Translations under genes and position numbers: made by a program
Source of the DNA: Amphiscolops sp. MND2022
Taxonomy: Eukaryota
Length of the DNA stretch: 64,000 bases
NCBI GenBank assembly: GCA_964187785.1
Contig: OZ076409.1
Span: 9,364,001 to 9,428,000, forward strand
Direction of reading: 5' to 3'
In this document: positions 19,701-31,700 of the stretch, in pieces
Position numbering within the stretch: position 1 is the first letter of the stretch
Layout: every line of letters begins with the position of its first letter
The notes under the pieces: generated by a model
Told to the model about the DNA's origin: nothing
The model's input: the letters and a program-made list of their open reading frames with translations, nothing else
Databases searched by the model: none

Positions 19701-22700
19701 CATGTAAAGTAAGTTAGTCTGTTATTGTTCTGTACTTATTTGTTCCGTTGTTTCAAGGTAAAAAGTCAAAACTTTCGTCAAAGAATTCACCTCTTTCCGG
19801 AGACTTTATTTTTCAACTGAAAAATGACAACTAAAAGTCAGAAGAGAAAAGCTGTAGCTGAGCTAAATTTTGGAGATTTTGAAGCCTCTGTAGCTGAGAA
19901 AAATCCTCCTGAACACCTTATAGCAAGTTCTAGCAAGTCTCCTAGAATACAACCTGAGAACTTAAACGAGATAAAAACGTCTCTGAGGAAAGAGATTATG
20001 TCTCATTTAGCAAAGATGTTAGCTGAAAACCAAAACGAAGTGCTAAAAAAACTCATAGCACCATTGAATAAAAGTCAACAAGTCCGTCTGAATAACCAGG
20101 ATTCTGATTCTGTGCCTGAGAACACCTCCGTAGCCAGAAGGTCAATGCCTGGTAAAACAAATGCGACTAGCTCCAAAACTACACCGGTAATTGTCCTAAC
20201 AATCATTGTTCAAGAAGCCTGTCAACATTACCAAGTCAATCAAGATTTTACCCTGGAGCATCAAGTTGCTCTTAAAAAGCTGTATCCGCATTTGAAGACA
20301 TTCGAGGAACTTGCCGCCCTTTGTCGAGAAGATGTAAGAAATGAACCTCATTTCATGTGTCTTTTCTGAGGAAAATATCTATATAAAGCGGCCGCTTTCG
20401 AGGCTAGCAATAGCATGCGCAATGTCCGGAAATCAGCTGAAATGCCGGAATAGAATAATACAAAATATGTTTGTTTTAAGTCGAGCTATGCCGTGTTTCA
20501 GCTCATTTCCGGCGGTGGCAGTGCATCTGGCGGCAATCCTGATTCAGGATGGTTTTTGTTCAGGAGGCTTGTGAATATTACCGAATTAACGAGGTTTTTA
20601 CTTTCGAGCAGCAGGTTGCTTTGAAGAAGCTATGTCCTCACATGCTGACTTTCAAAGAACAAACGGCTCTTTGTCGCGATGATGTTAGAATGCAGTGATT
20701 CGTTTTTTTCGGAAGTTCCGTTGCTCACCAAGTGAAATAATAACCTGAAGAGGGTCAAACTTCATGTCGTTAATTCTTTTCAAAATTTTCTCGAGAATCT
20801 GGTATTTTTCAAAGGCAAGAAAACTATATTAGTGACAAGGTCGATGTATTAACCGTTCTGTCCCCGCCGGAAATCAGCTGAAACACATTTTGTGTCTATT
20901 TTGCTTGATTATGTAGTAACAGCATCAGGAGTGGAGGGCGTTTGTTGTTTTATTTGATTTCCGGTGGCGGTGGAACGATTGCCGGCAATGCTGATTCCTC
21001 TGTAATTGTTCAAGAGGCCTGTGAATATTACAGAATCAATCAAGATTTTTCCCTGGAACATCAGATTGCTCTGAAAAGCTGTATCCTCAAATGCAGACTT
21101 TCAAAGAACAAACGGCTCTTTGTCGAGAAGATGTTAGACCCTGCATATAGTCAATAGTCGCTTGAGTTAAAATGTCACTGTTGATAATGCTCTATCGTGT
21201 GTTCGCACCGTGATGTGAAAAAAATTTCACTCATTAAAACTCGTCCTTCATTCGAATGCGCGTTTTGCAATTAGTTTTTCGATGTTGACCACAACGTCAA
21301 TGCACTGCCGATCCACTGGGAATCAGATAAATTTAGGCATTACCGTTTTTTTCATAAATGAATTTTTCTGTGCTTCGAGTTTGAGATCTACCTGATGTTT
21401 CAGCTCATTTCCCTTGGCGGAAGTGGATCAAACGACACTGCTGACTCATTCGTTGAGGAAGCGTGTGAATATTACAGCGTTAACCAGGATTTCACCCTGG
21501 AGCACCTAAAGGCTCTGACAAAGCTGTTTCCGCATTTGCAGACTATCAAAGAGCTCACTACTCTTTGCCCTGAAGATGTTAGCCTAACCTTCAGACACTC
21601 TGGATTTTAAATTCTGAACGTTTAGTTTTTATTTAAACGTTTAGGGTACGAAAACAACGTGGTGTTATACGGTGCAATACCGAACCGATTCCTTCGGTTG
21701 ACAATGTCAATCAAACTTTGATCTTACATAGCCCTAAATGAGATTTATGTTTATATATATTTGTAAACATTGTGCTAGATCTTTCGTGCTAGAAATACAT
21801 CATTTAGTTACCGTTGAAACTAGAGAAAAGATCGTTTTGACATTGCTTTCTGTTCAAAGACATATTTTACAAAACATCGTTTTTACTACCTAACCAAGCG
21901 ATAGAACATGGCGCAGTCAGCAATCTAAATAAATAAACCAAGAAAACTGTATCGAAACAAAGAAAATGACAGAAGACAACAAAATCGAAGTACCGAATTT
22001 TGAAGCCACCTCAGACGGAAAGAGAATATTTACACCGAAGCAATGGCTTGAAAGATTTCGGCAATATACAAAGAGGAAACACAAGATGGACATTACCGAA
22101 CTGATACGGGGAGCCGAAATGACACAAACCGGTTGGTCCGGAAAAGAAACAGAAATCCAAGAAGACTTCATATGGGGAATCGGCCCCGAAGCATTATACC
22201 AAATGACACGGGCAGAATATAAAACCGAACCTGACAAAATAGCGGTAAAAGACTTGATCCGATTATTCAATGAATACTTCCTACCGAAACGAAACACCTA
22301 TCATAACCGGGGAGAATTCTTCTGGACAAGACAAACCGAATCCGAGACACCAGAAGACTTTTGGCGGCGATTGATAGAAATAGAAAAAGAATGTGCATTT
22401 GAAGGAATAACAGCCGAAGATTTATTGATTTCAAAATTCATGACCGCAATTACGGACACGAAACTTCGGGATAAACTAATGAAAGAAAAGAAACTCGAAC
22501 TGAAAAAGACAATCGAAATGATTAAACAGAACACATATGAAAGAAAGAATCGAAAAAACACAATACCGGAAGCCTTGATTTCACACCGAGAAAAAGAAAT
22601 AAAAGAAGAACCGATACAGAGAATGGAAAAATCTGATACAAGACCAAAGAACAAATTCACAAATGAGAAACCATGCAAATTCTGCAACGCACCGAACTGG

Positions 22701-28700: not shown

Positions 28701-31700
28701 GAGGAAATAATTCGGGGCGGGATGTATTTCTGGGGAAGTGGATGCTTGTCAGATCTTAAAAGAGGCTTGTGAATATCACAAAGTACATGCATGACTTCAG
28801 GGGGGATCATATAAGCGCACTCTTGAAACAATACCTTGACCTCAGCTTCAATGAACTACCACGGTTGTGGAAAGACAATGGACAGTTTTAGGTGTACGTT
28901 TTTATTATGTAAGTTTTAGGTTGAAAATTTTGGCGGCGATCAGGAACAACTTCTAAATGCAAAACGGGAATAACGTCTGAAGCCAAGTCATGCATGCTCA
29001 TTCCCTATCTCTATACATTGAACGCTATTCCTTCAGACTTTATTCCCGAAACACTTTTGGACGTTATGACCGCCTCTGGGCAGTTTTGGTTCTTCTACAA
29101 TTATTCTGTCTCTTGTTTACAAAACAAGAAACAATTTTTCCGCCCTCGTTTTGAGAGTATATTGGATCTGGTCTTGAGAGTTTTGAAAACTTTATCTCAC
29201 TCTCTTCAAATGCCCTATTCGTGCTTGTAAAATGATATTGAGTTGATCAATTCTGTTAACCTACATATCCTTGTGCAGATTAAATGTAGAACGATCCTGT
29301 ATTTAGATAGTCGTTTGAACCAATGAATCAACTAAAATTCATGAATGCAACTTAATATCTCATGTTGAAAAATTTCGGCTTTGTAAGGTGAGTGCCATCA
29401 TAGTTTAAGATTGCCCTGCATAAATCTTCTCTAAGATGCTGACTGCCGCTCGATGTTTTGAAGCACTCTCAAGACAAGACTTTCGACTCGGTTTGCTCTT
29501 CGTATCGTCAGTCTAAAATGTTGGACATCGTGGCAGTCTCAGAAATCGGGATGGATTTGAACACCTTCATAAGTGAGTGTCCTTTAACCAGCAAAAGACG
29601 ACGAAGAAACATTCAAGGACAGGTTTGGTGGTAAACACGGGCAAGCGGTCAGCCGGAAAACACCCGAGTAGTTTTTCACAACGCAGCATGAATTCAAAAT
29701 TATTGAACCTTGTTCATGCGACGTTTTTGTTTTGATCACGTTTTCCGGAATCTCTCGTGATGAACTCACATTCGAAAGTTTTTGTTCTGATTATCAAAAC
29801 TTCGGGAACATGACAGCAAGAAGCTTAGAAATGGGTCTCGGTATGCTCTTTTTTGCACGCTGAATAATGTTTGCGAAATTGTAAATGTTGTCGACTAAAT
29901 ACTTGAACTAGTGCCAGCACCGTTGCGTTTCTTTGAATCGGTCTTGGTATGAAATGTTGGGAGAAAATTGCTGTTTTGGTGGGAATTTATGGAAACTTGT
30001 TTCATTGGGCGTCAAAAGACAAGACGCCCGCTAAGCACCGGGATATTTTCCTCCCTTTTCGCCTTCATCACTTGAGCCATAGCTATTTTGGGAGGGGAAT
30101 AGGATCTAAATAATAAGATCTAAAAGTTAGTGATTTCAGATCTTATTCCCGTCCTGAAATTTTAGATCTTATTCCCTTTAGATCTTAATCCCATTTTTAC
30201 TTTAGATATTATTCCCATCTCAGTATGAAGGATGAAGGCTGAGCAGGGAGACTGAGTAAGTGGAGTGGAGTTGTACAAAGTGGAGTTTTGGCAGAATTTG
30301 GAAAAAAACGCAACACAGATGATGGTTTTCCTCCCCCATTGAAAATGTGGGTCGGAAACTGATACACAAAAAGCCTGAGACAGTTGATATCATTCAATGT
30401 CAAATTCGACCGCAAAGTTTTCGAGTAGATTTATACAGATAAATCTATGATTTTTGAAGTCCATTCGGAAAAATTGGGCCACTTTCAATTTTCTGTAGCT
30501 TCATTTAAGATGTGAAAAACAATAAGACGATGCTTTATTATTCTTTCATGGATGTAGTTAAGAGAAATTTTCATTCATATTTGGTTGTTTCGTTTATCGA
30601 CGTTCGGGAAAAATAGCCTACAAAATGTTTCGCTGACAACTTTGAATCTCGATGGCTGTTTATTGCAAATTTAGGGGAAAGAAAACCGAATTAATAAAAA
30701 AAGGATTATACATTCATTATCGATTGAAACTACTCTGGCATTTTTAGTCCGACTCCCGGAAAGTATGACTAACAAAGTAAGTGAAAACTGTTTTTGCAAA
30801 CATAAAATAAACTCGTGCTATCAACTGTCTTTTGCTTTATGGTATCAAGGTTGTTTCATGTTCACTCCCGTTCCTGTAGCCATCGCATCGGTGTGGACTT
30901 TATTTTTAGGAGTCTGCCAAAGATGAAGTCACATTCGGAAGCCTCTGTGCGGATTATCAGAACTATGGAAACATAGAAATTAAGAAACTGGGTCAAATCG
31001 GACTGGGCGTTGGTGATTTTTTGAGCCTATGCCAACGTACAAGTCGACGTAGGCGAGATGTTAGCCACCTCTCTAACATAGGGCTTGCGCGGTCGCGGGC
31101 CTGAGCAGCATGTAACGTAAAAGCGTTTCGGTTTTTGTGAAAAAACTAAGATTTTTTGTTCCGACATCGACCTTAGTTGAGCAAAAAACCTTCCTTCAAG
31201 TTTCGTTTCCTATATAGATTCGATAATTTGGAGCAGTTTTAGGCGAATAGTGGAGACTCTTCTAATCCGACCTTTGAAGAACTGTGTTCCGAATTTCGAA
31301 ACACAAATACCTTTGAACCCAAAGATGTTTCACAACTTGGTATGACGGTTGGAGCCTTCATTTCAAACTGTCCGTTGAGTAGAAGAAAACGCCGCAATGT
31401 TGATATGTTACCTGTTTTCACATTTCGCTATCGAAAGCTTGGAAGCAAAACAGGGCAGTTTGTCTTTTTAGTTGGCGCTTCATGAAGTGAAACGCGACTA
31501 ATATAGTGGCTTTTTTTTCAATCCACACGAACTGACCAAAATAGTTCTTAAAAGTTATACAAAATATTATTGCACCAAATTGCACCATTTGGCCTAGGGA
31601 ACTGAACCAAAAAGGTTTTTCCTGTTCTCCCGCGTAACATACAATACCGGGCGAGACCAAAGGGTCCCCCCTTTCATTTTTTTGGCACTGCGAGACTTTT

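Follow-up and report, generated by a model that had tools for sequence, protein, structure and literature searches.

The cassette array and its parent gene

We analysed a stretch of 64,000 nucleotides (nt) from Amphiscolops sp. MND2022 (contig OZ076409.1, positions 9,364,001 to 9,428,000 of the forward strand), hereafter referred to as the window; positions are counted from its first letter unless another locus is named. The window carries part of a gene built from a tandem array of homologous exons of similar length, of which five copies are present in the window (contig C1) and at least 13 at a second locus on another chromosome, contig C13. The cassette exon is 180 nt long, lies in phase 0-0 and encodes a 60-residue module with two invariant cysteines; it begins after TTTCAG with CTG ATT TCC (Leu-Ile-Ser, LIS) and ends with GAA GAT, followed by GTAAGA or GTTAGA. 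In the intron before most cassettes lies a short element, here named S, of about 17-25 nt with the consensus CCGGAAATCAGCTGAAACA. This upstream intronic arm is the reverse complement of the acceptor arm, D, which comprises the polypyrimidine end, the AG and the first 11-16 exon bases, so that the stem formed by S and D includes a core splicing signal.

A single cassette peptide matched no Pfam family, and a search of the protein atlas returned only low-scoring unrelated clusters. A profile search with the module led to two long proteins of more than 2,300 residues, LOC134854903 of Symsagittifera roscoffensis and LOC142340535 of Convolutriloba macropyga, both from acoels and both listed by NCBI as uncharacterized. 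Their precomputed Pfam labels include PF08434 (CLCA N-terminal) in both and a VWA domain in the Convolutriloba protein. These orthologs consist of a CLCA head, some 25-30 two-cysteine modules and then a C-terminal transmembrane tail; the two-cysteine modules, encoded by the cassettes, make up the repeats in the centre of this giant, CLCA-like membrane protein. Several downstream modules in the orthologs P0029/P0048 are separated by basic runs (RRKRR, KRRRR), and runs of this kind are likewise present in the window exons 29443-29634 and 31243-31400. They may be proprotein-convertase sites.

The whole protein is encoded at C13 by an intact full gene (minus strand, about 34,428,331-34,508,805), whose conserved exons share 53-83% identity with the Symsagittifera protein. 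The window holds homologs of ortholog residues about 556-1016 only, and neither the N-terminal CLCA domain nor the VWA domain of the CLCA-like gene was found in this copy. It is collinear with the C13 array, introns included, at 80-93% identity. When the 1.07-Gb genome was searched, a 281-nt unit of the array gave 11 matches and the module protein gave 15, all of them within the two paralogous loci. The window array is a partial, damaged and decaying segmental duplicate of the middle part of the C13 gene, and conclusions about the biology must therefore be drawn from the C13 array, which is intact. From this parent array the window has inherited its stems, which are in part decaying.

Stems at the cassette acceptors

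The initial annotation of the window had proposed that the 3' splice sites of the cassettes are base-paired to dedicated antisense arms in the upstream intron, which would hide them and make exon skipping the default. Here, hairpins were scored by RNA folding against 200 dinucleotide shuffles, and stem lengths were tested against natural control sequences; single units are labelled w in the window and c at C13. As RNAduplex z-scores against natural controls were modest and long bulged duplexes form easily, weight was put on ungapped stems and on folding.

Three of the four main pairs proposed for the cassettes stood up to this scoring. In copy 2, the pair 20426-20442/20496-20512 is 94% complementary over 17 nt and folds with z = -5.05 (0 of 200 shuffles as good). 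Its arms extend over 20 nt (S at 20426-20445, D at 20493-20512) with 17 Watson-Crick pairs, 2 G-U pairs and 1 mismatch, and D runs from the polypyrimidine tail across the AG at 20500-20501 into the exon, of which it holds the first 11 bases. The pair 27040-27061/27115-27136 of copy 5 is complementary at 21 of its 22 positions (95%) and reaches z = -4.90, again with none of the 200 shuffles as good; its D arm spans TGTTTCAG and the first 14 exon bases. In copy 3, the pair 20864-20885/20946-20967 turned out to be part of a longer stem, 20850-20885/20946-20981, with 26 Watson-Crick pairs, 7 G-U pairs and 3 mismatches over 36 nt (z = -5.81, 0 of 200 shuffles as good). The acceptor AG within the D arm of this copy has been lost and reads TTTTAT. 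One further arm/acceptor pair had been overlooked, namely 28524-28541/28686-28701, which belongs to the last cassette type and whose S arm has S13880 as its C13 counterpart.

The pair 21305-21332/21398-21429 of copy 4 was found to be at chance (z = -0.89), since 36 of 200 shuffles fold as well. The C13 paralog of this copy keeps a good 19-nt stem; at one position of S and three of D, the alignment shows a departure of the window copy from the family consensus, which the paralog still matches. Thus, the window copy has decayed. The match of gatccact to agtggatc, which had been taken as a sign that this arm fits its own copy, is common to the window and C13 paralogs and represents an alternative register.

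Other acceptors in the window gave a different picture. Weaker stems had been suggested at 29718 and 32701, but 56 of 100 and 49 of 100 natural controls, respectively, reach an equal length. Beside these two, four further window acceptors have no stem above chance when compared with natural controls. Among the non-LIS exon clusters of the C13 gene, 2 of 39 reach 17 pairs, against a maximum of 18 and a 95th percentile of 15 among 150 random controls; in one of these two clusters (gene position 62718) the 3' arm lies 14 nt inside the exon, off the acceptor. With six window acceptors at chance (two of them named in the initial annotation) and 2 of 39 C13 clusters, a device common to other exon types of the gene was rejected. 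The cluster at 62718 has an 18-nt upstream complement (62543-62560/62731-62748 of the C13 gene, L016/L017 region), with 16 Watson-Crick pairs, 1 G-U pair, 1 mismatch and a loop of 170 nt. The complement at 62543-62560 faces the codons D-L-I-G-G-S-D of a different module type, and it may be either a coincidental match or a diverged form of this device.

The stem 28965-28982/29031-29048 had been presented as an unrelated cassette with the same architecture. It is complementary at 17 of 18 positions as described, but it is not a cassette acceptor; its arms are the inverted repeats of a dispersed element at 28942-29067 that resembles a miniature inverted-repeat transposable element (MITE). With at most 2 mismatches, the arm has 2,945 and 3,119 hits in the genome (6,064 together), against 12 and 4 for the reversed-pattern control. 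For the 126-nt element as a whole, 1,066 first-look candidates were obtained and 40 were scored, with 43 matches; apart from the window's own, 40 of these span most of the element, with an identity of 77-82%. Being dispersed with thousands of copies, the arm is therefore a transposon inverted repeat, which is the very outcome that the initial annotation had named as speaking against its proposal. Close by, at 30090-30197, there is a cluster of direct and inverted copies of the 16-nt motif GGGAATAGGATCTAAA and its complement, and this motif resembles the inverted repeat of the element at 28965-29048.

The main stem family differs from such an element in being confined to the two paralogous loci. 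Nine exact hits of the S 17-mer were found in the genome, eight of them in the arrays. When one mismatch was allowed, the number rose to 45 (15 in arrays and 30 scattered, 7 of the latter sharing one variant), and the reversed-pattern control gave 0. As the 281-nt unit is present only at the two loci, the possibility that the main stems belong to a dispersed MITE was rejected.

Conservation of the upstream arm

To compare rates of change along the array, identity was calculated for the 21 pairs among seven core C13 units, and unrelated 50-mers were scored with the same aligner. The S 17-mer has a mean identity of 0.78 (range 0.65-0.94). In the same units, codon positions 1 and 2 reach 0.84 and third codon positions 0.46, the S-D loops 0.49 and the 54 nt upstream of S 0.48; unrelated 50-mers give 0.48 ± 0.04. 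S is also the sole block of the introns whose 12-mers recur, with at most 2 mismatches, in five to six of the other six core introns, and 12-mers of the polypyrimidine/acceptor end recur in two to five of them. In S, the columns AATCAG are invariant, and the T, A and A that come next are nearly so. Within the 86-kb gene region, motifs similar to S or D (at most 3 mismatches) are confined to the array.

Thus, the upstream arms are indeed a constrained intronic element, and the sole evident property of this element is that it is the reverse complement of the acceptor and first codons. The initial annotation had stated that the arms are conserved and the loops are not. This is correct among the old C13 duplicates (0.78 vs 0.49), but it does not hold between the window and its C13 paralog, where the loops are as alike as the arms (roughly 85-93%). 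The conservation of S among the C13 units is the strongest evidence obtained here, and it suggests that S is under purifying selection.

Leu-Ile-Ser opens every cassette of this kind in the orthologs (7 of 7 and 5 of 5 in the two proteins, P0029 and P0048), and the Gly/Ser/Asp linker around it is variable in the two proteins. The invariant LIS fits a constraint at the nucleotide level on the start of the exon, without proving one. In addition, a read-through open reading frame (ORF) from another assembly, P0006, has ..TENQLKQ.. about 22 codons upstream of ..FQ/LISG.., which would fit an S arm. The unit concerned is ~87% identical to c10171 as judged by eye, and this is a single and indirect observation. 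The short relatives of the ORF type do not read through far enough upstream for arms to be seen in other genomes, and a pattern scan of metagenomes for S followed by D yielded one unrelated perfect palindrome only.

Predicted pairing between arms and acceptors

The C13 array has 13 D-type acceptors and nine S arms, an S arm lying before nine of the 13 LIS-type acceptors. The arms proved not to be dedicated to single acceptors as had been supposed. Arms and acceptors pair indiscriminately (permutation p = 0.20 for a preference for the own partner), and for six of the nine arms the RNAduplex pairing is more stable with the preceding cassette's acceptor than with the arm's own (for example, -47.1 vs -37.1 and -43.3 vs -33.5 kcal/mol). 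Exon-specific arms were rejected on these grounds. In a stem scan, pairings with the preceding acceptor that enclose the whole exon reached 29, 32 and 20 nt, with loops of 210, 250 and 285 nt, respectively. The minimum-free-energy fold of the 3.2-kb core array, which is illustrative only, contains four pairings with preceding acceptors, two local hairpins and two acceptors that pair with no arm.

For covariation, 13 units were aligned over a 33-pair stem and compared with 500 column shuffles. Slid registers pair at 30-48%, far below the correct register. In the core of the stem, G-U cells outnumber A-C cells (28 vs 8). Of the 13 own pairings, 9 are more stable as sense than as antisense duplexes (mean -3.0 kcal/mol, p = 0.064); where the partner is the preceding acceptor, 7 of 8 pairings favour the sense duplex (mean -4.0 kcal/mol, p = 0.027).

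Covariation beyond shared ancestry, on which the initial annotation had made its proposal depend, is weak over the whole set and clear in one or two units. The exon of c13582 starts with TCATCGAGCGA instead of TCCGGTGGTGG, and the arm matches this start; the resulting 25-bp stem has one mismatch, and in four pairs both partners differ from the family consensus. S13880 forms 20 bp with the preceding D13582 on the exon side and 20 bp with the following D14036 on the intron side. On the other hand, the long extensions in w20948 and c8573 fit the exons of many other units, and they look ancestral rather than compensatory.

Condition of the window array and other features of the window

All parts of the window array described here lie on the forward strand. 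In copy 1, a transposon-derived open frame at 19821-20180, identified by its translation, has replaced the 5' half of the cassette together with its acceptor and upstream arm. This frame belongs to a very abundant family, for which 5,808 first-look candidates were found genome-wide, and the 150 that were scored are 70-100% identical. Only the 3' part of the copy remains (20186-20336); it was recognized by the direct-repeat families D2, D6 and D10 and by translation, and matches the C13 unit c13rc 9358. The open frame is fused in-frame to this part. Copy 2 (20502-20683, 182 nt) is frameshifted, having 2 nt more than its C13 paralog, and copy 3 (20954-21132, 179 nt), in which the acceptor is dead and 1 nt has been deleted, is a pseudo-exon. 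Copy 4 (21404-21577, 174 nt), which follows the decayed S arm at 21305-21332, has a 6-nt deletion and an open frame. Copy 5 (27123-27302, 180 nt) is intact in phase 0-0, and its protein is 97% identical to that of the C13 paralog. Downstream of it are a degenerate cassette with in-frame stops at 28230-28400, homologous to the C13 unit c13rc 13582, and the degenerate last cassette, which together with its D arm occupies 28686-28880 and has an in-frame stop.

A Ty3/gypsy-type long terminal repeat (LTR) retrotransposon is inserted between copies 4 and 5 at 21663-26979, outside the stem system. Its two LTRs (21663-21908 and 26734-26979, 246 nt) are 100% identical and a 5-bp CGTGG repeat is present on both flanks, which suggests that the element entered the cassette array very recently. 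The element has an open frame of 1,549 codons, and Pfam reports RT, RNase H, integrase zinc-binding and protease domains for it; the rve integrase core domain was not among the Pfam results for 21663-26979.

Several additional features were noted in the window. An intronic 19-nt inverted repeat at 32836-32854/33015-33033 is 89% complementary, with 160 nt between its arms; both arm regions match the C13 paralog, and with five matches genome-wide it is not dispersed. Directly downstream of the array, at 35273-37293, there are exons of a papain-family (cathepsin L-like) cysteine protease, as judged by eye (..NSWG..WGENGY..). Tandem repeats are found at 2432-2826, 42262-42341 and 46293-46518, with a period of 79 nt (four copies) and of ~37 nt (eight copies in two blocks). 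At 48718-52550, several direct-repeat segments that are 98-100% identical lie about 1.9 kb apart (GC content 0.47-0.49), and another direct repeat, 79-87% identical, is formed by 41830-42230 and 60816-61215, 19 kb apart. These large direct repeats are probably further transposons. With regard to annotation, the array in this window should be described as a decayed partial duplicate, and one of the stems claimed for it as a MITE.

A proposed model of competing pairings

Pairing is better in the sense than in the antisense strand, and therefore an RNA structure over the 3' splice site is the best reading of the S and D elements. More specifically, it is quite possible, although we would not yet call it probable, that S and D act as RNA elements which pair in the pre-mRNA and form a network of competing pairings that masks 3' splice sites. 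The complementarity of S and D, the stability of their stems, the constraint on S, the confinement of both to the array and the promiscuity of the arms are established; from these we infer the folding of the RNA in vivo and the effect of this folding on splicing. Each S would pair with a D in the pre-mRNA. Pairing with the next acceptor would give a local hairpin with a loop of 40-67 nt, and pairing with the preceding acceptor would loop out the whole preceding exon; a 3' splice site would be buried in either case. Since the elements are interchangeable and there are fewer of S than of D, competing pairings would decide which acceptors stay accessible. Such a competition would modulate the number and identity of repeat modules in the protein.

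A stricter version of this model is that the D-S-D-S...-D chain on C13 works as a one-dimensional register system, in which each S can zip to the acceptor on either side. As acceptors exceed arms and pairing would be between nearest neighbours, few acceptors would be left free, and their identity would be set by the points at which the register switches. We consider this version quite unlikely as it stands.

Several observations weigh against a role of S and D as RNA elements. In the covariation alignment, paired cells make up 69.7%, which 70 of 500 shuffles attain, vs 68.5% in the shuffles, and the covariation score is 0.165 vs 0.144 (reached by 15 of 500). The own acceptor is not a better partner: in addition to the p value of 0.20 given above, which refers to all 33 columns, the permutation test gives 0.044 for the core 22 columns and 0.14 for the distal 17. 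Counted as distinct column-states, the ratio of G-U to A-C is 13 vs 7 (p = 0.13), and the functional-looking unit c10570 has two A-C mismatches. Because the units are related and not independent, all these p values for covariation and strand, including those for the stability of the sense duplex, are optimistic. Moreover, the 3' arm is constrained anyway as a splice site and coding sequence, and four of the 13 D-type acceptors on C13 lack an S arm of their own.

The isoforms of the orthologs belong to the same side of the argument. They are computational RefSeq models, numbering at least 23 in Symsagittifera and at least 44 in Convolutriloba by their numbering. In Symsagittifera, 12 of 12 isoform clusters cover the LIS-cassette region at 100%, and isoform differences are located at residues 1066-1736 of the longest form. 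In Convolutriloba, 21 of 21 clusters retain the LIS cassettes and the gaps lie downstream (alignment columns 787-1528). The downstream modules that do vary among ortholog isoforms show no comparable stems in the C13 gene. Hence, with every LIS cassette kept in all 33 RefSeq isoform clusters examined (12 + 21), the suggestion that skipping is the default finds no support. The ortholog models contain 7-8 and 5 LIS cassettes in series, which also argues against mutual exclusivity in these species.

Alternative explanations

Much of the above would be expected if the stems were a functionless remnant of one ancestral inverted duplication of the intron-exon boundary that was copied with each tandem duplication. 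Shared ancestry explains most of the pairing, the arms have decayed in w21398, c9358 and the last unit of the window, four acceptors have no arm, and the cassettes are constitutive in the ortholog models. What this explanation fails to account for is the identity of S, which at 0.78 is the sole common block of introns that otherwise stand at 0.48-0.49, with third codon positions at 0.46. As the surroundings have decayed to the level of unrelated sequences, a neutral 17-mer should have decayed too, and we therefore regard a functionless remnant as unlikely. Selection on S could also act through a protein. Both S and D contain the palindrome TCAGCTGA with the E-box CAGCTG, on which the invariant columns of S are centred, so one DNA- or RNA-binding factor might recognize both arms and their complementarity would be a by-product. 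However, the pairing extends beyond the palindrome (GGAAA/TTTCC, AAAC/GTTT), where 8-13 of the 13 units are paired, the extensions are unit-specific in c13582, c8573, w20948 and c14036, and the sense strand pairs better than the antisense strand. Such a binding motif is thus a distinctly unlikely source of the stems.

A process at the DNA level, namely template switching or gene conversion between the inverted copies, might maintain the complementarity without any selection on RNA structure. The four double changes coordinated within c13582 and the perfect 20-bp extension into non-coding sequence at c14036 resemble block copying rather than stepwise compensation, and both were counted in its favour. 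Arms of ~20 nt are, however, short for gene conversion, and the process leaves unexplained the persistence of S in seven old units, the excess of G-U over A-C (28 vs 8 cells) and the bias towards the sense strand; in our view it is very unlikely to be responsible. The same double-stranded RNA could serve another purpose, for instance as a substrate of adenosine-to-inosine (A-to-I) editing, in which an exon is paired with an intronic complement, and an imperfect exon-intron duplex of 20-30 bp is the classical geometry of an editing site. Since the centre of the duplex is the AG with the splice junction and not a particular codon, we judge a role of this kind to be highly improbable. Finally, terminal inverted repeats of a dispersed MITE, which is what the stem at 28965-29048 consists of, are hardly credible as the origin of the main family, given that its 281-nt unit is limited to two loci and that eight of nine exact S hits fall in the arrays.

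Comparison with known systems

Competing RNA pairings that choose among tandem exons are known mainly from arthropod genes and from a few vertebrate genes, and they use a single docking site as a hub. The pairings between a docking site and selector sequences were reportedly first described by Graveley. In relation to this class, the S/D elements show both similarities and differences. The passages cited here for Dscam1 exon 6, 14-3-3xi, Mhc and srp describe competing docking-site/selector-sequence pairings in tandem exon arrays (PMC3535345, PMC4691838, PMC8791459), and the C13 array shares with the systems outlined there the duplicated tandem exons, a conserved intronic element before each exon with a shared consensus complementary to a common partner, and the possibility of alternative and mutually incompatible pairings. 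Unlike the systems in those passages, it has no single docking site, and none was found outside the array in the 86-kb gene region. The partner is instead the acceptor and first codons of the exon itself, and therefore pairing should mask an exon and not activate it. In addition, the exons are in phase 0-0 and stand in series in the ortholog models, where mutual exclusivity is not seen, and the gene and the phylum are different from those in the cited accounts. With no single dock and no mutual exclusivity in the models, the C13 array is not a member of the docking-site/selector-sequence class as defined.

A closer parallel in terms of origin is offered by the model of Ivanov and Pervouchine (2018), in which, according to the part of the paper referred to here, an exon that is duplicated together with an adjacent intronic stem-loop generates competing structures (PMC6071210). 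Here too, intron and exon have been duplicated together, and the copies of one arm compete for copies of the other. As set out in that part, the model duplicates one arm, which leads to one dock and many selectors, whereas both arms have been copied in each unit of the present array and one of them lies across the splice site itself.

Masking of splicing signals by local structure is documented in the cited section of a review for the hairpin at the 5' splice site of MAPT exon 10, the stem in SMN2 exon 7 and the sequestration of the polypyrimidine tract in F8 intron 15 (PMC11802352). In these cases, as would be the case here, a local stem holds a core splicing signal and would hinder its recognition. 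The hairpins named there are single sites in single exons, whereas up to nine acceptors with interchangeable arms would be involved in the C13 array. The same section mentions the looping-out of exons by complements on both sides of the exon, such as pairs of intronic Alu elements (PMC11802352). A preceding D and a following S likewise enclose a whole exon, with loops of 210-285 nt; the differences from the situation outlined there are that one arm is the exon's own acceptor and that the arms are about 20-30 nt instead of whole repeats. In the literature searched, we found nothing comparable for CLCA-like genes or for splicing and RNA structure in acoels, and nothing in print on the CLCA-like cassette gene itself.

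If S and D have no role as RNA, it would still have to be explained why an intronic 17-mer mirroring the acceptor is so strongly conserved. If they have one, the array would represent a layout different from the known ones, in which both arms are duplicated with each exon and one arm is the 3' splice site, and it would provide a living example of the starting state that the duplication model assumes in the part of the paper cited above (PMC6071210). Should the register version of the model also be true, the chain of S and D elements would be a self-contained RNA device without a docking site that sets both the number and the identity of the modules in this giant membrane protein. It would then be a way of counting or choosing tandem cassette exons unlike that of the Dscam type, in an early-branching bilaterian lineage.

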